A DNA stretch of 64,000 nt from Candidatus Nanopelagicales bacterium (GTDB taxonomy: Bacteria; Actinomycetota; Actinomycetes; S36-B12; UBA10799), in contig JAWKJM010000004.1 of NCBI GenBank assembly GCA_041393775.1, positions 384,701 through 448,700 of the forward strand. Direction: 5' to 3'. Below the pieces are notes generated by a model. That model did no database searches, was not told where the DNA came from, and saw only the letters and a program-made list of their open reading frames with translations. The translations under genes and the position numbers were made by a program. Position 1 is the stretch's first letter; every line of letters starts with the position of its first letter. This document shows positions 4,345-61,458 of this stretch, piece by piece.

Positions 4345-5167
4345 ACTCCCCGAGGTCGAGGTCGTCCGGCGCGGGCTGGAGCATTGGAGCGCCGGTCGCA
4401 GGATCGAGCAGGTCCAGGTGCTGCATCCCCGGGCGGTACGCCGGGACCCTCGCGGCGGCCAGGGGTTCGCAGACGCGTTGCGGGGTCAACCGCTCTCGGC
4501 CGTGCGTCGCAGGGGGAAGTTCTTATGGTGGCCGCTGGCAGGTGAGTCTGCGCTGATCGGGCATCTGGGGATGTCCGGACAATTCCGGGTCGATGCCGAT
4601 CGCACCGAGCACACACGCATCATCTTCGAGCTCGACGGGCGAGTTCTGTTGTTCGACGACCAGCGCACGTTCGGGGGCATGTGGCTCGACGCCACGGCCG
4701 ACGGGGTGCCGCGGACCTTGGCGCACATCGCCCCGGACACGTTCTCGCCGGCCTATGACCGGCGCAAGGTCGTGCGGACCATCCGGGCCCGGCGGGCACC
4801 CATCAAGTCCCTGCTGCTGGACCAAGGCGTGGTTTCGGGGATCGGGAACATCTACGCCGACGAGGCACTGTGGCATTCGAAGGTCCACTGGCGCACGCCG
4901 GGATGCGAATTGAGTGCGCGCAAGGTGGGACAGGTGCTCGACGCGGCCCACGGCGTGATGCAGGCGGCGATCGAGGCCGGCGGCACCTCGTTCGACAGTT
5001 TGTACGTCAACGTAAATGGCAGCAGCGGCTACTTCCAGCGCGACCTGTGCGCATACGGTCAAGCCGGGCTGCCCTGCCCGCGGTGCGGGACCCCGATCCT
5101 GCGCGAGCCGTTCGCCAACCGGTCCTCGTTCCGATGCCCTCGGTGCCAGCGGCCGGGTGCGAGCTGA
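4337..5167 (+). CDS. mutM: formamidopyrimidine-DNA glycosylase
   Basis: N-terminal MPELPEVE catalytic motif and a C-terminal zinc finger [25 protein letters not shown]. The gene overlaps the rnc stop by 8 nt. Confidence 0.92.
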
Positions 5168-5199
5168 GGAGGCACCCGAATCATCGGGCGCGAACCTCG

Positions 5200-5313
5200 T
5201 GTGACGAAGTTGCGGTGGCGAACCCTCGATTGTCACGAAGGTGTGCTGTCTCGAGCGCTCAGACCGCGCACCTTCGTGACACTGCGCGGGGCGGGCCACC
5301 AGCTTCGTCACAA
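5200..5313. repeat. Family B nested-palindrome element, copy B1
   Basis: TGTGACGAAGTTGCGG..TTGTCACGAAGGTGTGC..GACCGCGCACCTTCGTGAC..CTTCGTCACAA. It begins 32 nt after the mutM stop. Confidence 0.9.
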
Positions 5314-5514
5314 TCGTGTCCGCCGGGGATGTGCTGACGGGTCTGTTCGGCACTCGGATGAGCGAACACGCGGCGTCCAGACGGGTGTGTTCGCTTGACG
5401 CGCATCGCAGCGTTATGTCAATCTGATATATAGATGCGGCATCCCGTATCAAGAGGCAGCGCATCCATGCGGACGGTTTCGCGGAGCGCATGTGCATGGT
5501 TGTGGAGGACTCAG

Positions 5515-5863: not shown

Positions 5864-8800
5864 GTGCATCTGAGGAGTCTGACCCTTCGCGGTTTCAAGT
5901 CTTTCGCTTCTGCGACGACCATCGACCTCGAGCCTGGGATCACCTCTGTGGTCGGTCCGAACGGTTCGGGCAAATCCAACGTGGTCGACGCGATCGCCTG
6001 GGTCATGGGCGAGCAGGGGGCCAAGAGTCTGCGCGGCGGCAAGATGGAAGACGTCATCTTCGCGGGCACAGCGGGCAAGGCACCGCTGGGTCGCGCCGAG
6101 GTCGAACTCACCATCGACAACTCCGATGGCGCGCTGCCCATCGACTACACGGAGGTGACGATCCGGCGGACGTTGTTCCGCAGCGGAGGCTCCGAGTACG
6201 CGATCAACGGCCAGACATGCCGACTGCTGGACGTCCAGGAACTGCTGGCCGATTCAGGCATCGGCCGGGAGATGCACGTCATCGTCGGGCAGGGGCGACT
6301 GGACGCGATTCTGCGTGCGAGTCCGGAGGACCGGCGCGGTTTCATCGAGGAGGCCGCCGGGGTGCTGAAGCACCGTCGTCGCAAGGAGAAGGCCCTGCGG
6401 AAGCTGGAGCAGATCCAGTTGAACCTGCAGCGGCTCACCGATCTCGCCTCGGAACTGCGCCGTCAGCTCAAGCCGCTCGGACGCCAGGCCGAGGTCGCCC
6501 GTCGAGCCGTGACCATCCAGGCCGACGTGCGGGATGCGCGGCTGCGTCTGCTGGCCGACGACGTCGCCGGGGTCCAGCACGATCTCGCCCAGGAACAGGC
6601 GGATGAGAGCGCCGCGAAGGCCGAACGCGAAAGTGTTGAGGCGCAGCTCGAAGAGGCCCGAGCGCTTGAGGCCCGGCTGGAGCGACAACTGCAGGAGGTC
6701 GCCCCGCAGCTGCACGCTGCACGCACCCGGTCACTGGACCTGACCCGGCTGCGCGAGCGCACCAGCGGTCTGGTCGCACTCATCGTGGAGCGGCGCCGAT
6801 CGCTCGAACGTGAGCAACTGGAGTTCAGCTTCGGTGTGGACCCCGAGGATCTTCAGCGACAAAGTGAAGCCGTGGCGCAGCAGGTCGTCGACCAGGCGGC
6901 GGCAGCGCAGGAGGCTCAGCGCCAGTTCGAATTGGCCCGGACCCAGGCAGAGGAGATCGCTGCGCGTGTGCGCGATGAGCAGGCGAAGGTGATGACTGCG
7001 GAGAAGGCGCTGACCGAGTACCGCCAGCAAGTGGCGGCCGTCGAGCAGGCAGTCTCCGGAGGGCAGCGACTGGTCGAGGCGACCCAGATCCGGGCATCCC
7101 GGCTCGCGCAGCAGCAGGAACCCGCGCAGCAAGAGGCGCAGGACGCCGCTGCCGCGCTGGCCGCCCTTCCGACCGAGGAGACGCCGACCGAACAACTCGA
7201 CATGACGGCCGCCGACCAGGCGATGAGTGCTGCCGAGGAAGCCGTCGAACTGGCACGAGCCGAGTTGTCGACGCAGGAGCAGCAGCGCGCATCGCTGACT
7301 GCCCGCTGCGAGGCCCTCCGGGCCGCTGTCGCACATTCGCCGGAGCACTCCCTCGCCGCGGAGGTCCAGGAGGGGTCCCTGGACGGTCTGATCCGGGTCC
7401 GCCCCGGCTACGAGAAGGCAGTCGCCGTTCTGCTGGGGGCGCATGCCCGGGCGACTGTTCTGCGAGCAGGGGTCTCGTCCCTCGAGATCCTGGAGGCCGC
7501 CGGCGCCGACGTGGCCCTGCGGCTGGTGGTGCCGAGCCCGGTGTGGTCCGGCCAGGCCGGCCCGGAGGCGGCCTTGTCGTTCATTGAGGCACCCGAATCC
7601 CTGCGCGGCGCATTGAGTCAGATGCTGGCCAAGTGCGTGATCGTGGCCGACCTGGATGCGGCGTCGGCAACGGTCGCCGACGATCCCGAGGTGCTCGCCG
7701 CGACCGTGGACGGTCAGGTGGTCGGGCGCGGCATGGCCTGGCAGGGCTCTGACGGCGCGAACGTCATCGCCCTGCGCAACGCACTCGAGCAGGCCACCGA
7801 CGAGTTGGTGACCACCGAGTCCTGCTGGCGCCGAGCCGTGGATCATGTGGCGCGGGTGGAGGCCGAGGCCGCAACCAGCCGTGCCCATCGCGATGAGGTG
7901 CGCAACGCGGTGGCCCAGCAGCAGGCCCAGGCGGCAGCGGCCGCCGAACGCGACGTCCATGTCCGCAAGCGGGCCGCGGAGACCGCTCGTCGGCTCGAAC
8001 TCCTGGAGTCGGAGCAGTCGGAGGTGGCGCAGGCACTTACCGAGCAGCAGGCCGACGTGAAAGCGGCGGGGGACCGACTCGAACGGTTGCGCGAGGCCGG
8101 CGCTCCGGATGTCGATCGCTCCGCCTTGACCGAGCTGCTGGGCGGCCAGGAGCGAGCTCGTCAGGTGCATCACGAAGCGAGCCTGTCGGCACGATCAGCG
8201 CACGAGCGGCACGACAGCGTCCAGGCCAGACATGCGGAACTGCTCCAGCAGACTGAGCAGGCGCGGGAGGCCGTTGAGGCGGCAGTTCGCCGTCGGGTCC
8301 AGCGTGAGCAAGCGCTGACCACCTTGGGCCGCCTCGAGGAACTCGCCGGTCGAACAGCGGTTCTGGTGGACCAGGACGCTGCTGTTGCGGAGACCGACCT
8401 GTCGGTGCTCGAACGCGACCAGTTGCAGGTGCAGGCCGATCACGCGCGGGCCCGCGAGGCGACGCTGGAACTCGCAGAGCATGTGCAGCGACTGACCCAG
8501 GACGTCCACCGCGACGAGGTGCTTCGCGCCGGCAAGCGCGCAACGCTGGAGCAACTCACGGAGAAGGCGCTCGAGGAGTTCGGACTGACCATCGAGAACC
8601 TGGTGGGTGAATACGGCCCTGAGCAGATGATCGCCGGTGCCGACGGCGAGATGATCGCCTACGACAGGGGGCAGCAGCAGCGCCGGCTGAGAGAGGCAGA
8701 GCGGGGCCTGGCCCTGCTGGGCAGGGTCAACCCGTTGGCGCTCGAGGAGTTCGCCGCTATGGAGGAGCGTCACACCCACCTCGTCACCCAGATCGAAGAC

Positions 8801-10682: not shown

Positions 10683-10920
10683 GTCCGAGAACGGCTCGTG
10701 TCCGCGGTGGTCGCCCGCGAGGTTAGAGAACGTGCACGAGGTTAGAGAATGCACGTGTGGCTTCTCTAACCTCGTGCACGTTCTCTAACGCGAGCGACTT
10801 CCGCCCGGCATTTCCCGGGCTGAACGCCGCGGCCGGCCACGGCCATGGACGACTAGCGCGAGCGATTTCCGCCCGGCATCTCCCCGCCTGAACGCCGCGT
10901 TCGCGGATGACGAACGCGGA
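10683..10920. repeat. Family A modular palindromic element, copy A1 (core hairpin 10721-10789)
   Basis: Core GGTTAGAGAACGTGCACGAGGTTAGAGAA-TGCACGTGTGGC-TTCTCTAACCTCGTGCACGTTCTCTAAC. It is followed by about two ~66-bp units (GCGAGCGAyTTCCGCCCGGCAT..CTGAACGCCGCGGCCGGCCACGGCCATGGACGACTAG). Confidence 0.9.
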
Positions 10921-11162: not shown

Positions 11163-11279
11163 ATTGTCACAGAGTCGAGGGGTTCGGAAGGTGCCTTGTC
11201 ACGAAGGTGGGGGTGCGGCAGGCGTAGAGCGCGCACCTTCGTAACACAGTCGGCCGGGGTGCCTGTACCTTCGTCACAA
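11163..11279. repeat. Family B nested-palindrome element, copy B2 (left outer arm disrupted)
   Basis: ATTGTCAC[agagtcgaggggttcg]GAAGGTGCC TTGTCACGAAGGTGG...GCGCACCTTCGTAACAC...CCTTCGTCACAA. Confidence 0.85.
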
Positions 11280-31354: not shown

Positions 31355-31715
31355 GTGTGGCGGGCACCTGCGGCCGGTTGAGGGCCAGGCGGAAATCGCT
31401 CGCGTTAGTCGTCCATGACCGTGGCCGGCCGCGGCGTTCAGGCGGGCAAATGCCGGGCGGAAACCGCTCGGGTTAGAGAACGTGCACGAGGTTAGAGAAG
31501 CCACACGTGCGTTCACTAACCTCGTGCAGGTTCTCTAACCTCGCGACCATTCTCTAACCTCGCGGCCCACTTCTGCGGCGACCGGGTACACGCGGCATTT
31601 TCGGACTAGAGAACGTGCACGAGGTTAGAGAAGCCACACGTGCATTCTCTAACCTCGTGCAGGTTCTCTAACCTCGCGGCCAACTCCTTCGCCGAGTACA
31701 CGAGCCGTTCTTGGG
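31355..31715. repeat. Family A element, copy A2 (two hairpin cores: 31471-31560 and 31607-31674; opposite orientation to A1)
   Basis: One and a half L-units, then core 1 (with a third arm copy CTCGCGACCATTCTCTAACCTCGCGG), an R-unit, core 2 and an R-like unit. Confidence 0.9.
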
Positions 31716-33023: not shown

Positions 33024-33268
33024 GTCCGAATACGGTTGGTGTATCCGCTTGCCGAGCAGTTGGCCGCGAGGTTAGAGATCGTGCACGAGGTTAGAGAACG
33101 CACGTGTGGCTTCTCTAACCTCGTGCACGATCTCTAACGCGAGCGATTTCGCCCGGCATTTTCCCGCCTGAACGGGCGGCCGGCCACGGCCATGGACGAC
33201 TAACGCGAGCGATTTCGCCCGGCAATACCCGCCTGAACGCGCGACCGGCCACGGCGGGGGGTGACTAA
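33024..33268. repeat. Family A element, copy A3 (core 33070-33138, two L-units)
   Basis: GGTTAGAGATCGTGCACGAGGTTAGAGAA-CGCACGTGTGGC-TTCTCTAACCTCGTGCACGATCTCTAAC followed by 2 x ~66-bp units. The last unit ends on the tesB stop codon. Confidence 0.9.
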
Positions 33269-39094: not shown

Positions 39095-40368
39095 CGCTGG
39101 TCGGGATCGTGGCGCTTGTGCTTGCGCTGGTCTTCTCGATCGCGCTGCACGAACTCGGGCACATGGTTCCGGCCAAGAGGTTCGGCGTCAAGGTCACCCA
39201 GTACATGATCGGCTTCGGTCCGACGCTGTGGTCGAAGAAGTCCGGTGACACCGAGTACGGCGTCAAGGGCGTTCTGCTCGGCGGCTATATCAGGATGATC
39301 GGGATGTTCCCCCCGGGACCTGACGGCAAGATCAAGGCGAGCAGTACAGGGCGGCTGGGCACCCTGGTCGAGCAGGCGCGTGAGGAGTCCGCCGCCGAGA
39401 TCGTCGAACCGGGCGATGAGAAGCGTGTGTTCTACCTGTTGTCCGTTCCGAAGAAGATCGTCGTCATGATGGGCGGACCGGTGATGAACCTGGTCATCGC
39501 GATCGTGCTGTTCACGATCGTGTTCGCCGGTTTCGGAACCCCGACGCCGACCACGACCGTTTCGACCGTGACCGCGTGCGTGCCCACCGCGACCGACCCT
39601 GAGGGTACTTGCGTCAGCGGTGCGGGCGGACCCACCGGTGCCGCAGAAGCTGGGCTCCAGCCGGGTGACCAGATCGTCGCCTGGGACTCCGTGCAGGTCG
39701 CCGAGTGGCCCGGACTGAGCCAGGCGATCAGGGACTCGCAGCCCGGCTCCCACGCGGTGACGGTTATGCGGGATGGCCGCGAAGTCACCCTCGAAGTGCC
39801 GTTGACCACCATCGACGGCAGCCTGCTGGGCGAGAGTGCGTCTCCCCGCGGGTTCCTGGGGGTTTCGCCACAGGTCGAACTGCGCCCCCTGCCGATCAGC
39901 GCGGTGCCTGGGCAGATGTGGGACATTTCGATCCGGTCCGGACAGGCGTTGCTGAGCTTCCCCGCCAAGATGGTGGGTCTGACTGAGGCCGCCTTCACCG
40001 ATCAGGCACGTGACCCGGATGGCCCGGTCGGGGTCGTGGGCGTTTCCCGCATCAGCGGTGAGGTGGCCTCGGCTGACGCGCCGCCGAGCTGGCGGATCGC
40101 GCAGTTCCTGGCGATCGTCGCCTCGCTGAACCTGTTCCTGTTCTTGTTCAACCTGCTGCCCATACTGCCGCTGGACGGCGGGCATGTGGCAGGTGCGCTC
40201 TACGAAGGCAGCCGCCGGCAGGTCGCCAAGTTCCGCGGCCGCCCTGATCCGGGTCCGGTCGACGTCGCCCGCATGCTACCCGTGGCCTACACCGTGGCGC
40301 TGGTGCTGATCGCGATGAGTGTGATCATCCTCTGGGCCGACATCGTCAAACCGATCCGGCTCGGGTAA
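39091..40368 (+). CDS. rseP: M50 site-2 zinc metalloprotease (RseP/Rip1-like)
   Basis: HELGHM zinc motif, a PDZ region and the C-terminal [12 protein letters not shown] motif. ATGA overlap with dxr. Confidence 0.9.
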
Positions 40369-40379
40369 CGCCGGGGCGA

Positions 40380-40494
40380 TTGTGACGAAGGTGCGGACGT
40401 CCACCCTGCTTCGTCACGAAGGTGCGCGGTCGCGAGCGCTTAGACCGCGCACCTTCGTAACGCGGCGCCGGGATGGGCCGCACCTTCGTCACAA
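40380..40494. repeat. Family B nested-palindrome element, copy B3 (best preserved)
   Basis: TTGTGACGAAGGTGCGGAC...CGTCACGAAGGTGCGCGGTC-gcgagcgcttag-GACCGCGCACCTTCGTAAC...GGCCGCACCTTCGTCACAA. It starts 12 nt after the rseP stop. Confidence 0.92.
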
Positions 40495-40564
40495 TCGGGT
40501 CGGTCAGCCCCGGCCGCCCGCCGGCGGAGCGGGCGGGTTTGACCCCATGGGCGATAATTGACCC

Positions 40565-41716
40565 ATGACCGTTTCGTTGGGTATGCCTGCCGGGCCGCCG
40601 CCAACATTGGCAACCCGCCGACCGACTCGCAAGATCACTCTGCGGCATCCGCACCACCCGGTCGAGGTCGGCGGCGATGCGCCGATCAGTGTGCAATCGA
40701 TGACGACCACGCTGACCGCCGACGTGAACGCCACCCTGCAGCAGATCGCTGAGTTGACCGCGGCCGGCTGCCAGGTGGTCCGGGTCGCGGTGCCGAGTCA
40801 GGACGATGCCGAGGCCTTACCGGCCATCGCCAAGAAGGCCGACATCCCGGTCATCGCGGACATCCACTTCCAGCCCAAGTACGTCTTCGCGGCCATCGAC
40901 GCCGGGTGTGCGGGCGTGCGCGTCAACCCGGGCAACATCAAAGCCTTCGACGACAAGGTCGGCGAGATCGCCAAAGCCGCCGGGGACGCAGGCATCCCGA
41001 TCCGGATCGGAGTCAATGCGGGGTCGTTGGACAAGCGCCTGCTGGAGAAGTACGGCAAGGCGACGCCTGAGGCGCTGGTCGAAAGTGCGCTATGGGAAGC
41101 GTCGCTGTTCGAGGAGCACGATTTCCGCGACATCAAGATCTCGGTCAAGCACCATGACCCGGTCGTCATGGTCCAGGCCTACCGGCAGTTGTCGGCGGCG
41201 TGTGAGTACCCCCTGCACCTCGGCGTGACGGAGGCCGGTCCCGCCTTCCAGGGAACGATCAAGTCGGCAACCGCCTTCGGCGCGCTGCTCAGCGAAGGCA
41301 TCGGCGACACCATCCGCGTGTCCCTTTCGGCCCCGCCGGTCGAAGAAGTGAAGGTCGGCCTTCAGATCCTCGAATCGCTCAACCTGCGCGAGCGCGGGCT
41401 GGAGATCGTATCGTGTCCCAGTTGCGGCCGGGCGCAGGTGGATGTGTACACCTTGGCCGAGCAAGTCACCGCGGGACTGGAGGGCCTCGAGGTCCCGCTG
41501 CGGGTCGCCGTCATGGGCTGTGTCGTCAACGGGCCGGGGGAGGCGCGGGAGGCGGATCTGGGTGTCGCCAGCGGCAACGGCAAGGGTCAGATCTTCGTGA
41601 AGGGCGAGGTCATCAAGACCGTTCCGGAAGCGGCCATCGTCGAGACGCTCATTGAAGAGGCCATGCGCTTGGCCGAGTCCATGGAAGTTGGCGAACCGAC
41701 CATCTCGGTCGTGTGA
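40565..41716 (+). CDS. ispG: 4-hydroxy-3-methylbut-2-en-1-yl diphosphate synthase
   Basis: PISVQSMT..., VRVAVP, and the SCPSCGR...GCVVNGPGE Fe-S cysteines. Confidence 0.95.
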
Positions 41717-42770: not shown

Positions 42771-43082
42771 GGTTAGCGTTAGAGATCCACGGCGTTCAGG
42801 CGGGAGAATCCGGGGCGCAGACCGCTCGGGTTAGTGGTCCATGGCCGTGGCTGGCCGCGGCGTTCAGGCGGGGAAATGCCGGGCGGAAACCGCTCGGGTT
42901 AGAGAACGTGCACGAGGTTAGAGAAGCCACACGTGCGTTCACTAACCTCGTGCACGATCTCTAACCTGGCGACCATTCTCTAACCTCGCGGCCCACTTCT
43001 GCGGCGACCGAGTGCACCGGGCCATTTTCGGACCAGAGAACGGCCAACTTCTGCGGCGACCGAGTATGCGAACCGTTTCCAG
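42771..43082. repeat. Family A element, copy A4 (core 42897-42985; two L-units, two R-units)
   Basis: Most complete copy: L-variant, L-unit, a hairpin core with a third arm, then 2 R-units (GGCCCACTTCTGCGGCGACCGAGTGCACCGGGCCATTTTCGGACCAGAGAAC / GGCCAACTTCTGCGGCGACCGAGTATGCG..). Confidence 0.9.
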
Positions 43083-48118: not shown

Positions 48119-48343
48119 CCGGTTAGCCTCAGGCGTTCGTGTTGGACGTTCTTGAGTCCGAAAAGGGCTCGCGTACTCGGTAGCAGCAGGAGTTGGCCGC
48201 GAGGTTAGAGGTTGTCCACGAGGTTAGAGAAGCCACACGTGCATTCTCTAACCTCGTGCACGTTCTCTAACCCGAGCGTTCCCGCCCGGCATTTTGTCCG
48301 CCTGAACGCCGCGGCTGGCCACAGCCGCGGATGAGCAACGGGA
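48119..48343. repeat. Family A element, copy A5 (core 48203-48271; loop inverted relative to all other copies; left arm degenerate)
   Basis: GGTTAGAGGTTGTCCACGAGGTTAGAGAA-GCCACACGTGCA-TTCTCTAACCTCGTGCACGTTCTCTAAC followed by one L-unit. Confidence 0.88.
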
Positions 48344-51970: not shown

Positions 51971-52084
51971 TGTGACGAAGTTGCGGGGGCCGAACGCGCA
52001 TTGTCACGAAGGTGCGCGGTTGCAGCTGTTCGGACCGCGCACCTTCGTAACACAACGCCCGGGTGACCGGCTACTTCGTCACAA
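51971..52084. repeat. Family B nested-palindrome element, copy B4 (inside the nusA-ylxR-infB operon gap)
   Basis: TGTGACGAAGTTGCGGGGGCC...TTGTCACGAAGGTGCGCGGTT-gcagctgttcg-GACCGCGCACCTTCGTAACAC...CTACTTCGTCACAA. Confidence 0.9.
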
Positions 52085-52202
52085 ACGTGACCGCTGGGCC
52101 GACTCGCATGGATCACGCGGGCATCCACCTGAATCCGCCGCCAGCGAACGCATTGTCGCCGCCGTTGACGGGCCACGCTAGACTTGTCCCTGGATTGCCG
52201 CG

Positions 52203-52600: not shown

Positions 52601-55357
52601 GTGGCCAAGGTCCGGGTCTATGAACTCGCACGCGAGTTGGGCGTGGAGAGCAAACAGCTCATCACACAACTGGCTGATATGGGCGAGTTCGTCAAGTCCG
52701 CATCATCAACGATCGAAGCCCCGGTCGTGCGCAAACTGCGCGATGCCGCCAAGTCGGCACCGGCGAAGGAGGCCGCGTCGGGGGCGAAGAAGGCTCCCGC
52801 CAAGCCGGCGCCGCGGCCGGCCAAGAAGGCTGTCGAAGAACCCTCGGCGCCGACTGCTCCTGCGTCGGCTCCCGCGGCACCAAAGCCCGCAGCTCCCGCC
52901 CCGCCAAAGCCCACGCAGCAGCCGCAGGCTCCTGCCGCACAGGCCCCCACTCCCGCCGCCCCCAAGCCCGGCCCCCGGCCCGGCAACAACCCGTTCGGCT
53001 CCCCGGCCGCGCCCCGTCCCGGCAACAACCCGTACGGCTCGCCGGCGCCTCGCCCGGGCAACAACCCGTACGGCGGCGCAGCTCCTGCTGCCCGCAGTGG
53101 TGGAGTCCCAGGGGCACCGCGGCCCAACCCCGGCATGATGCCGCCGCGCCCGCGACCGGCCCCGGCACGACCAGGTGGACCCGGTCGTCCGGGCGGTGCG
53201 CCCGGCGGTAGGGTCCGTCCCGGCGGACCCGGTGGCCCTGGGCGTCCCGGCGGCCCCGGCGGTTTCGGCGGTCGCCCTGGCGGTCCCGGTGGCGCCGGTC
53301 GTCCTGGCGGAGCGCCTGGCGGAGGGGGTGGTTACCGTCCAGGTGGCGCCCCGGGCGGTGGCGGTCGCCCCGGCGGCCCGGGTGGGCCTCCCGGCGGTGG
53401 TTTCGGTGGGCGTCCCGGCGGTCCCGGGCGGCCCGGCGGCCCGGGTGGTCGAGGCCGTCCCGGCGGCAAGTCGCGCGCCCGCAAGAGCAAGCGCGCGAAG
53501 CGCCAGGAGTTCGACAACATGGAGGCCCCGACGGTCGGTGGCGTGCGGATTCCGCGTGGTGACGGCCGTACGGTGCGACTTCCGCGTGGCGCGACCCTGA
53601 CCGACTTCGCGGACAAGATCGATGCGAACCCCGGTTCGTTGGTGCAGGCCCTGATCACCCTGGGAGAGATGGCCACCGCCACCCAGTCGCTGTCCGACGA
53701 CACACTGATGCTGCTCGGCTCGGAGATGAACTTCAAGGTCGAGGTCGTCTCGCCTGAGGACGAGGACCGCGAACTGCTCGAGAGCTTCAACCTCGAATTC
53801 GGTGAGGACGAAGGTGGCGACGAGGCGCTGGAAAAGCGGCCCCCGGTCGTGACCGTCATGGGTCACGTCGACCACGGTAAGACGAAACTGCTCGACGCGA
53901 TCCGTCACACCAACCAGGTGGCACGCGAGGCTGGAGGCATCACCCAGCACATCGGCGCCTACCAGATCCAGGCCGACATCGATGGTCAGGACCGCGCGAT
54001 CACTTTCATCGACACGCCCGGTCACGAGGCGTTCACCGCCATGCGTGCGCGAGGCGCCAAGGTCACCGACATCGCAGTGCTAGTTGTCGCAGCTGACGAC
54101 GGAGTCAAGCCGCAGACGATCGAAGCGCTGAACCATGCACAGGCCGCAGAAGTGCCGATCGTGGTCGCGGTCAACAAGATCGACAAAGAGGGTGCTGACC
54201 CGCAGAAGGTCCGCGGGCAGCTCACCGAGTACGGCCTGGTTGCCGAGGAGTTCGGCGGCGACACGATGTTCGTCGACGTCTCGGCCAAGAGTCAGATCAA
54301 CATCCATGAGTTGCTGGAAGCGGTGGTGCTCACCGCGGACGCCTCGCTGGATCTGCGGGCCAACCCCGAGCAGGACGCCCAGGGTGTCGCGATCGAGGCA
54401 CACCTCGACAAGGGCCGCGGCCCGGTGGCCACAGTCCTGGTGCAGCGGGGAACGCTCAAGCACGGTGAGAGCATTGTGATCGGCGAGGCTCACGGCCGGG
54501 TCCGGGCGATGCTGGACGAGAACGGCGACCCCGTGGACGAGGCCCTGCCGTCACGACCGGTCCAGGTGCTGGGCCTGACCGCCGTTCCGGATGCAGGTGA
54601 CACGTTCCTGGTCGTGTCCGAGGACCGGATCGCCCGTCAGATCGCCAACATCCGGCAGGCGCGCGAGCGCAACGCCGAGCTGGCGGCACGTCGTGGCCGG
54701 CGCACGCTCGAGGACATCCTGCAGGGCCTGGAGAAGGGTGAGACCGGCACGCTGAACCTGATCATCAAGGGTGATGTGTCGGGTTCGGTGGAGGCGCTCG
54801 AGGATGCCCTCCTGAAGCTGGACGTGGGCGACGAGGTCGACCTGCGGGTCATCCACCGAGGGGTGGGCGCCATCACGCAGAACGATGTCAACCTGGCCAC
54901 GGTGGACAACGCGATCATCATCGGCTTCAACGTCCGCACCGCCGAGCGCGTCGCGGAACTCGCCGAACGCGAAGGAGTGGACATCAGGTACCACTCGGTC
55001 ATCTACGCGGCGATCGACGAGGTGGAGCAGGCACTCAAGGGCATGCTCAAGCCCGTATACGAGGAAGCTGCGCTGGGGACCGCCGAGATCCGGGAGGTCT
55101 TCCGCTCCAGCAAGGCCGGCAACATCGCCGGTTGCCTGGTGCGCACTGGGACGATCCGGCGCAACTCCAAGGCGCGGGTCATCCGTGACGGCGTGGTCGT
55201 CGCGGACAATCTCACCATCGACTCGCTCAAGCGTTTCAAAGACGACGCGACCGAGGTCAAGGACGGCTACGAGTGCGGTATCGGACTCGGTTCGTTCAAC
55301 GACATCAAGGTCGATGACGTCATCGAGACGTTCGAATTGCGGGAGAAGGCGCGCTAA
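52601..55357 (+). CDS. infB: translation initiation factor IF-2
   Basis: 918 aa. G-domain [20 protein letters not shown] and NKID motifs. AGGAGAG precedes GTG 52601. Confidence 0.97.
52970..53470 (+). repeat. low-complexity Pro/Gly codon-repeat tract in the IF-2 N-terminal region
   Basis: ([12 protein letters not shown])x3 followed by many GGPGRPGG-type units. It generates spurious ORFs in other frames. Confidence 0.8.
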
Positions 55358-61248: not shown

Positions 61249-61458
61249 TAGTCCGAAAATGGCTGGTGTACTCGGTCGCCGCAGAAGTGGGCCGCGAGGT
61301 TAGAGAATGGTCGCGAGGTTAGAGATCGTGCACGAGGTTAGTGAACACACGTGTGGCTTCTCTAACCTCGTGCACATTCTCTAACCCGAGCGATTTCCGC
61401 CCGGCATTTCCCACCTGAGCGGGCGGCCGCCACGGCCATGGATGACTAACGCGAACCC
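61249..61458. repeat. Family A element, copy A6 (core with third arm 61298-61385; one R-unit, one L-unit)
   Basis: TAGTCCGAAAATGGCTGGTGTACTCGGTCGCCGCAGAAGTGGGCCGCGAG-GTTAGAGAATGGTCGCGAGGTTAGAGATCGTGCACGAGGTTAGTGAA-CACACGTGTGGC-TTCTCTAACCTCGTGCACATTCTCTAAC-L unit. Confidence 0.9.

Follow-up and report, generated by a model that had tools for sequence, protein, structure and literature searches.

The window, a 64,000-nucleotide stretch of DNA from a Candidatus Nanopelagicales bacterium with a G+C content of 66.7%, contains four copies of a non-coding repeat of approximately 115 bp, here called family B. The four copies (B1 to B4) are all intergenic and have a single orientation. With NCBIfam-confirmed neighbours, B1 lies between fpg and smc, B2 together with a family A element between ftsY and amt, B3 between rseP and ispG, and B4 between nusA and ylxR(rnpM)-infB. 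The distance from the upstream stop codon to the copy is 32 nt for B1, 11 nt for B3 and 101 nt for B4. A sequence-only reading of the same DNA had described four copies of about 115 bp, three of them starting shortly after the stop codons of mutM, rseP and nusA, and both the copies and their gene context are as described there, with B2 starting at 11164.

5200-5313, plus strand: B1, fpg/smc spacer (nhmmer 100.9 bits); 13-mer cores start at 5200 and 5231 (forward) and at 5269 and 5300 (reverse)
11164-11279, plus strand: B2, ftsY/amt spacer, 3' of the family A element (nhmmer 88.6 bits); cores start at 11166, 11197, 11234 and 11266
40380-40494, plus strand: B3, rseP/ispG spacer, the best-preserved copy (nhmmer 101.6 bits)
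51971-52084, plus strand: B4, nusA/ylxR(rnpM)-infB spacer (nhmmer 105.4 bits); cores start at 51971, 52002, 52040 and 52071

Copy B3 is composed of the following segments.

40380-40396, plus strand: outer-left motif, TTGTGACGAAGGTGCGG
40397-40409, plus strand: left linker, kept in length and not in sequence, non-complementary to the right linker (duplex z -0.24)
40410-40431, plus strand: inner-left motif with extension, TTCGTCACGAAGGTGCGCGGTC
40432-40442, plus strand: apical spacer between the inner motifs
40443-40462, minus strand: inner-right motif, inverted, GACCGCGCACCTTCGTAACG
40463-40477, plus strand: right linker
40478-40494, minus strand: outer-right motif, inverted, CCGCACCTTCGTCACAA

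The alignment of the four window copies spans approximately 135 nt, with a mean column identity of 79%. Each is built from a non-palindromic motif of about 17 bp, TTGTSACGAAGKTGCGG, present twice in direct and then twice in inverted orientation, with start-to-start spacings of 31, 37-38 and 31-32 nt. This is the layout of two direct and two inverted motifs that had been read from the sequence, with two corrections: the inner-left motif of B3 reads TTCGTCAC and not TTGTCAC, and the linkers, previously put at about 12 and 20 nt, measure 13 and 15 nt in B3 after removal of the arms of 17-22 nt. The 14-mer GTSACGAAGGTGCG, allowing at most one mismatch, matches the window 12 times, always within B1 to B4, whereas shuffled sequences are expected to yield 0.07 matches and none of 100 shuffles attains 12. 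At up to three mismatches there are 31 matches, against 13.65 expected. The most degenerate of the window copies is B2, in which the outer-left motif has decayed. In B3 the inner pair opposes GTAAC and GTCAC, resulting in a C·A mismatch that is common to B2, B4 and the copies L006b and L007 outside the window. The element is polar, as all pairwise comparisons of the linkers and loops of the four copies score higher forward than reversed. The orientation that had been proposed as shared by B2, B3 and B4 is indeed plus for all three, and on the basis of the linker and loop similarity it extends to B1.

Several other features were observed near the window copies. Just 5' of ispG, the stretch 40541-40567 (GGTTTGACC...GATAAT-N6-ATG) is conserved in relatives with ~80% identity, as is the stretch ~52165-52200 just 5' of ylxR (TTGAC..CACGCTAGACT). 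Both stretches are possibly promoters, the one of ispG being of a leaderless type, and in both spacers the family B copy lies upstream of the promoter-like stretch. Between B3 and the promoter-like stretch of ispG, at 40514-40536, a small G+C-rich hairpin (CCGCCCG/CGGGCGG with a 9-nt loop) is followed by GTTTG; it is a weak terminator candidate, which the terminator scan did not call. Further downstream of B4, direct repeats within infB (52960-53470) encode a Pro/Gly-rich N-terminal region (PGGPGGRPGG-like).

When one genome per species was scanned for the inner inverted pair, only two relevant genomes emerged, both of them metagenome-assembled genomes (MAGs) of uncultured Actinomycetota, and a scan of metagenome contigs recovered the organism of one of them, HK-STAS-ACTI-17 (HK), again. 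The MAG MFD00905.bin.1.260 (MFD) contains at least six family B copies on five contigs, and HK contains at least three matching copies on three contigs, with a fourth (L006a) adjoining one of these; the numbers are lower bounds, as the scans demanded exact inner motifs. The total amounts to four copies in the window and about ten in the two MAGs. The sequence-only reading depended on the repeat being enriched beyond the window, and in both MAGs it is present with identical geometry. Inner pairs detected in a Streptomyces coding region (L005) and in low-GC metagenome DNA (L010 and L012) were rejected as chance occurrences. For IspG of the window, the best homologues have 96% identity and are encoded by MAGs that probably belong to Candidatus Nanopelagicales, an order of actinomycetes.

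The spacing of 31-32, 37-38 and 31-32 nt is fixed in 11 copies from the three genomes. Motif identity is 0.82-0.86, within genomes and between the three alike, a value that for the inner motifs of the MAGs is partly inflated because the copies were selected by an exact inner-motif pattern. The identity of linkers and loops is 0.49-0.56 within genomes and 0.39-0.44 between them, with 0.31 expected by chance. The conserved features are the motif and its spacing. The copies from MFD have an additional conserved left flank. At L009 (4731-4890) a family B copy carries a third inverted motif (2+3), approximately 37 nt past the outer-right motif, and has a polarity opposite to that of most copies. 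At L002 a tandem duplication of ~2.86 kb (1589-2450 and 4455-5310) comprises a TetR regulator, an MFS transporter and a family B copy 5' of the regulator; the duplication may be genuine or may have arisen as an artefact of the assembly.

The genes beside the copies have no common function; they include fpg, smc, ftsY, amt, rseP, ispG, nusA and ylxR, the pair rplA and rplJ, and genes for TetR, LysE, TauE and thiolase. Among the window and the two MAGs no intergenic site with family B was found to be common to two genomes, and the related or orthologous genes that a transcription-factor operator would be expected to have downstream across genomes are not present. The lack of any relation between the flanking genes makes a role as operator of a regulon, one of the functions initially suggested, unlikely. 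To our knowledge, and on informal comparison, the motif shows only 5-6-nt resemblances to the DnaA box, the CRP half-site, the GlnR and MtrA boxes, the PafBC (RecA-NDp) motif and the NrdR boxes, and these candidates were set aside.

Comparison of orthologous spacers, which the sequence-only reading had put forward as a check, shows that the presence of family B is variable. Relatives with 78-80% nucleotide identity (L014 to L018) are without family B at both the rseP/ispG and the nusA/ylxR site. In the HK species a methyltransferase gene has a family B copy on either side (L006), and neither copy is present at the orthologous sites of the close relatives L031 and L035, the neighbouring protein in L031 being 85% identical to that of HK and L035 falling in the same 90% cluster. 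These comparisons of presence and absence are between species, not strains. The possibility that L031 holds a diverged homologue of an HK copy is not supported, the local alignment z being only 1.2. Ten strain-level contigs carry identical HK copies, which thus give no sign of current activity.

Two of the copies, at L001 and L003, are interrupted after the inner-right motif, so that the outer-right arm is located 1.7 kb and 0.5 kb away, respectively. Within the L003 copy, the insert contains an element of family E together with a piece resembling family D. At L001 (split copy at 5252-5333 and 7015-7047) the 1.7-kb insert encodes a protein of 593 residues that has a signal peptide but no match in Pfam, and a family E motif (6971-6984) lies beside the displaced arm. 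An insert of ~930 bp was also observed inside a family D element at L015 (9000-9930); it contains truncated IS3-family transposase fragments on the minus strand, comprising an HTH, a leucine zipper and the start of a DDE domain. Absence in relatives, nesting and the presence of several families per genome are habits of mobile DNA.

The flanks of 14 aligned copies share no direct repeat that could represent a target-site duplication; instead, the inverted symmetry continues for about 5 nt past the terminal TG...CA (GCGAT before TGTCAC and ATCGC after GTCACA; GTCTT before TGTGAC...). When the empty and filled sites of HK are compared, a tip-like sequence (CAAAC versus CAAC) adjoins the right junction. 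No transposase was found beside or between the copies, either at the window copies or at the MAG loci inspected. Candidates for a partner were rejected in each case: L002 is a tandem duplication of TetR and MFS genes, L006 contains a methyltransferase, L001 encodes a secreted protein without a Pfam match, the IS3-family fragment of L015 is truncated and sits within a family D element, and the window ORFs that were tested are housekeeping or metabolic. A search for direct motif pairs in viral contigs gave nothing relevant, the matches being chance hairpins or a pentapeptide-repeat gene, and blastn of B3 against the PLSDB plasmids and INPHARED phages gave chance fragments or nothing.

The window and the related loci contain further repeats of comparable design, which were assigned to families A, C, D and E.

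10716-10790, 31468-31570, 31601-31690, 33067-33140, 42894-42995, 48200-48280 and 61295-61395 of the window: family A
L014 9560-9850 and L018 9590-9850, rseP/ispG spacer: family C (ACAGCCGTTAGC, two tandem elements)
L016 and L017 9860-9960, rseP/ispG spacer: family D (GTGCAGTTGGTTGACG, 1+3)
L003 844-960, L014 and L018 11991-12110: family E (GAGTGTTGCRCCGTTG)

Family E has the same 2+2 layout as family B, with a spacing of 31-33 nt, and all four of its motif copies match one another. Its motif GAGTGTTGCGCCGTTGCGG is identical to the family B motif GATTGTGACGAAGGTGCGG at 13 of 19 positions (binomial tail 9e-4); outer and inner motifs are alike within B and alike again, with a different sequence, within E. 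Family A is a continuous palindrome of CGAGGTTAGAGAA, with a unit of 19 nt in 2+2 or 2+3 copies. It occurs in both orientations and is often joined to repeated modules CTAACGCGAGCGA...CCGCCCGGCA...CTGAACGCCGCG, which are 68 nt apart. The earlier statement that families A and B have the same architecture is correct for the direct-then-inverted design, but not for the 19-nt unit and the continuous palindrome of family A. Families A, C and D have the 19-nt unit and a GTRCA...GTTAG-like core in common. Like family B, families A, C, D and E all consist of n+n direct-then-inverted copies of an intergenic motif of 13-19 nt; unlike family B, families A, C and D show the 19-nt unit, continuous palindromes, often an extra inverted copy, and other motifs.

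Different families coexist in one genome, with A and B in the window, B, E and a D-like family in the MFD MAG, and C and E in L014. In addition, different families occupy the same spacers in relatives. The rseP/ispG spacer holds family B in the window, C in L014 and L018, and D in L016 and L017, where the C and D copies are the only ones of their families in the 21-kb loci. The spacer after the gene for a DUF4081 acetyltransferase holds family A in the window (42790-43070) and family E in L014 and L018, starting 4-5 nt past the stop codon. Such occupancy of shared sites may reflect permissive or preferred targets, or retention for a function; few loci are involved, and the excess over chance is marginal.

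To understand what the arrangement of family B may represent, the repeat was compared with known systems. In the IS21 family, the terminal inverted repeats are made up of two direct repeats each (L1/L2 and R1/R2). Both repeats are required, and they are bound by a tetramer of IstA, with the catalytic subunits on the outer and the structural subunits on the inner repeat (PMC10122671). The same study draws parallels of the IS21 ends with those of Mu and Tn7. As in family B, such ends contain two direct repeats per end that are inverted between the ends, providing four sites for four protomers (PMC10122671). The ends of IS21 and of family B further share non-palindromic sites (~20 bp in IS21), a fixed spacing, and TG...CA at or near the tips (TGTGAC...GTCACA in family B). 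At the sequence level, 11 family B copies show this pattern of two direct motifs per end. Unlike IS21, however, family B has no istA, istB or other transposase gene between its ends or nearby, the whole element measuring 115 bp, and no target duplication of 4-8 bp is seen, the inverted symmetry extending about 5 nt beyond TG/CA. The spacing is different as well, with 31-32 bp from start to start in family B, whereas the direct repeats of IS21 are separated by 23 bp (PMC10122671). Family B would appear to resemble IS21-type ends in architecture only.

[quoted passage not shown] The copies have terminal inverted repeats, with outer arms of 17-20 nt that are 78.8% paired over 12 copies; they measure ~115 bp, are non-coding in that they lie outside called genes, are dispersed, and are variably present at orthologous sites. 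Bacterial MITEs such as the Correia elements are likewise small, non-coding, intergenic and multi-copy, with terminal inverted repeats, variable presence and nesting. In contrast to these, each arm of family B contains two spaced motif copies instead of one terminal inverted repeat, and neither a target-site duplication nor, beside the copies or in viral contigs, an autonomous partner was found. Keyword searches of the literature on actinobacterial MITEs and REPs gave nothing applicable, and a full-text search for the motif strings returned unrelated primer sequences only. The sequence of family B is new, but the general kind of element to which it belongs is familiar; its arrangement is, as far as the searches reach, without prior description for bacterial miniature repeats.

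From these sequence features we infer, with about even confidence, that family B represents a dispersed DNA element of the MITE type, non-autonomous and composed of four protein-binding sites, in an uncultured high-GC actinomycete lineage. The four ~17-bp motifs would be double-stranded-DNA sites for one sequence-specific protein, most probably a transposase supplied in trans, which would bind as a tetramer to two sites per end. Motif starts that are 31-32 bp apart would be separated by about three helical turns. Transposases with bipartite DNA-binding domains more typically recognise non-palindromic sites of ~17 bp than dimeric regulators do. The element would insert into permissive intergenic DNA, often just past stop codons, and then persist, and the nested-hairpin folding would follow from the inversion of the sites without itself being selected. 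Both the four-binding-site and the foldback-MITE mechanisms of the sequence-only reading survive here, merged into one, whereas its terminator or stabiliser roles and its emphasis on the nested hairpin are not supported. Several points weigh against the MITE interpretation. In an element of 115 bp the inner sites are only ~25 bp apart, which gives little room for synapsing both ends of one copy. Furthermore, no target-site duplication is definable, and no autonomous element or transposase with such ends was found beside the copies or in the viral contigs. Finally, the motifs are equally conserved between and within genomes, which would also fit selection at the level of the host.

The last point touches on a different explanation, in which selection on the host maintains the copies as binding arrays between transcription units. 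Each array would be bound by a dimer of dimers of a chromosomal protein, for example a nucleoid-associated or insulator-type factor or a transposase that has been domesticated. Such an array is an unlikely explanation, although it would account for motifs that keep their identity between genomes while the linkers are near chance, for the strictly fixed spacing, for copies that are fixed in a population (the 10 strain-level contigs of HK), and for spacers that hold different families in relatives (B, C or D at rseP/ispG; A or E after the DUF4081 gene). However, this model would call for several cognate host proteins, as unrelated motif families coexist in each genome. At the same sites close relatives manage without the element, and copies decay, as in B2, or suffer splitting insertions, as at L001 and L003. 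The co-occupancy of spacers is itself only marginally unexpected, as by a rough estimate ~5 of ~12 spacers in the shared 21 kb are filled by the window. A broader proposal appears quite unlikely: that families B and E, with a unit of 31-33 nt, and families A, C and D, with a unit of 19 nt, together constitute an undescribed class of actinobacterial intergenic elements, each consisting of n+n copies of a single protein-recognition motif with a fixed spacing, and that the repeated occupancy of sites reflects selection for a host role. Members of this class might act as protein-bound insulators between transcription units, or as sites for domesticated transposase-like proteins that co-evolve with the motifs.

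The folding properties of the repeat are relevant to the remaining alternatives. Predicted folds range from -66 to -92 kcal/mol, and neither strand folds consistently better. B1, B3 and B4 fold far better than shuffled sequences on both strands (z -5.5 to -11), and the degenerate B2 does not (z -0.9 and -2.4). Complementarity of the 18-19-nt linkers is at the shuffled level (duplex z mean -0.06, 11 copies), and the apical segment has no significant structure (mean fold z -0.22). In a 12-copy alignment of the two helices, 81.1% of the cells are paired, compared with 78.7% after shuffling of the 3' partners among the copies, and thus the pairing is owed almost wholly to the conservation of the motif; covariation in this alignment is modest (0.122 versus 0.081). 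The GTSAC centre is mismatched in 8 of 12 outer and 5 of 12 inner pairs. Non-Watson-Crick cells comprise 15 G·T, 18 A·C and 66 other mismatches, and the absence of an excess of G·T over A·C argues against RNA-level selection on either strand. In addition, the outer motif has the same sequence as the inner one, a likeness that is needed by a protein that binds four times, but not by a hairpin. The double nested hairpin, which the sequence-only reading had emphasised, appears to be incidental, with weak covariation beyond the motif and non-complementary linkers.

These observations bear on the possibility that family B is a hairpin element like those of the REP/REPIN or IS200/IS605 type, in which the inverted motifs would fold in DNA that is single-stranded during replication, and be recognised and moved by an HUH (Y1) transposase such as RAYT. 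In REP/REPIN families the unit is an imperfect palindrome of 20-40 nt that can fold alone, the copies number more than 100 per genome, and a RAYT gene of the same genome is flanked by them. The REP, REPIN and BIME repeats resemble family B in forming intergenic, species-specific families, often 3' of genes, inverted, and with several per genome (PMC3733652). REPs of the CGTC family have a stem of 8-9 bp, a loop of 4-5 nt and an unpaired tag at one end of the hairpin, and the text of the same paper contains no mention of Actinobacteria, Mycobacterium, Streptomyces or Frankia (PMC3733652). Family B differs from these repeats in its orientation, with two forward motifs followed by two reverse motifs and no alternation, and in its non-complementary linkers. 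The motif TTGTSACGAAGKTGCGG is not self-complementary, only GTSAC being quasi-palindromic, and pairing occurs solely between distant inverted copies. GTAG is absent, CGTC is found only inside the outer-right motif (TTCGTCAC) and is not terminal, and the stems measure 13-22 bp with loops of 11-25 nt. Membership of the REP/REPIN families was rejected because the self-folding palindrome with a GTAG or CGTC tag is missing (PMC3733652); family B is not a REP, and the match to a described REP or MITE family that would have undermined the original claim of novelty was not found among those compared. A single-strand mechanism is considered decidedly improbable on these grounds, although the dispersed intergenic copies have a strong fold potential on both strands, the lack of a target-site duplication is as expected for Y1 transposases, the inner pair alone forms a stem of 13-19 bp with a loop of 12-25 nt, and REPINs are inverted doublets (PMC3116915). 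Against it also stand the mismatches that are tolerated at fixed positions of the stems with weak copy-specific compensation, and the identity of outer and inner motifs, which it leaves unexplained.

A function in the RNA of 3' or 5' untranslated regions, where the nested hairpin would attenuate transcription, terminate it without a U-tract or stop 3' exonucleases, is highly improbable. In its favour, the window copies B1, B3 and B4 begin 11-101 nt past a sense-strand stop codon, the predicted folds are stable, and ~8 of 13 copies have the orientation of the upstream gene. Other copies, however, are found between divergently transcribed genes (L006a, flanked by LysE and methyltransferase genes, and L009) or antisense to their neighbours (L002 and L007), neither the linkers nor the G·U count (15, versus 18 A·C) indicates a selected RNA helix, and a strong terminator would be costly at B4 inside nusA-ylxR-infB or at L004 between rplA and rplJ. 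The terminator and mRNA-stabiliser roles suggested earlier are disfavoured by the same evidence. A G+C-rich hairpin followed by a U-tract and oriented with the upstream gene, the signature of an intrinsic terminator, is not seen; none of the four window copies is followed by a T-tract, and a terminator scan of 40200-40700 gave no terminator-like site. A search of the whole window against Rfam gives no match that reaches a gathering threshold; relaxed to E≤10, it yields nothing but generic models of long hairpins, which score far below threshold.

The repeats have practical consequences for the analysis of these genomes. They enlarge spacers in housekeeping operons such as nusA-infB, rplA-rplJ and rseP-ispG, pass for strong RNA hairpins when terminators or sRNAs are predicted, and could be used as lineage markers to bin MAGs and type strains. 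That different families repeatedly occupy the same spacers raises the question of target choice versus function. If the interpretation as a MITE-type element of four protein-binding sites is correct, family B would mark an unseen transposase, or a domesticated relative of one, in poorly known Actinomycetota related to Candidatus Nanopelagicales, and would represent a natural miniature element made solely of the four sites that tetrameric DDE transposases need.
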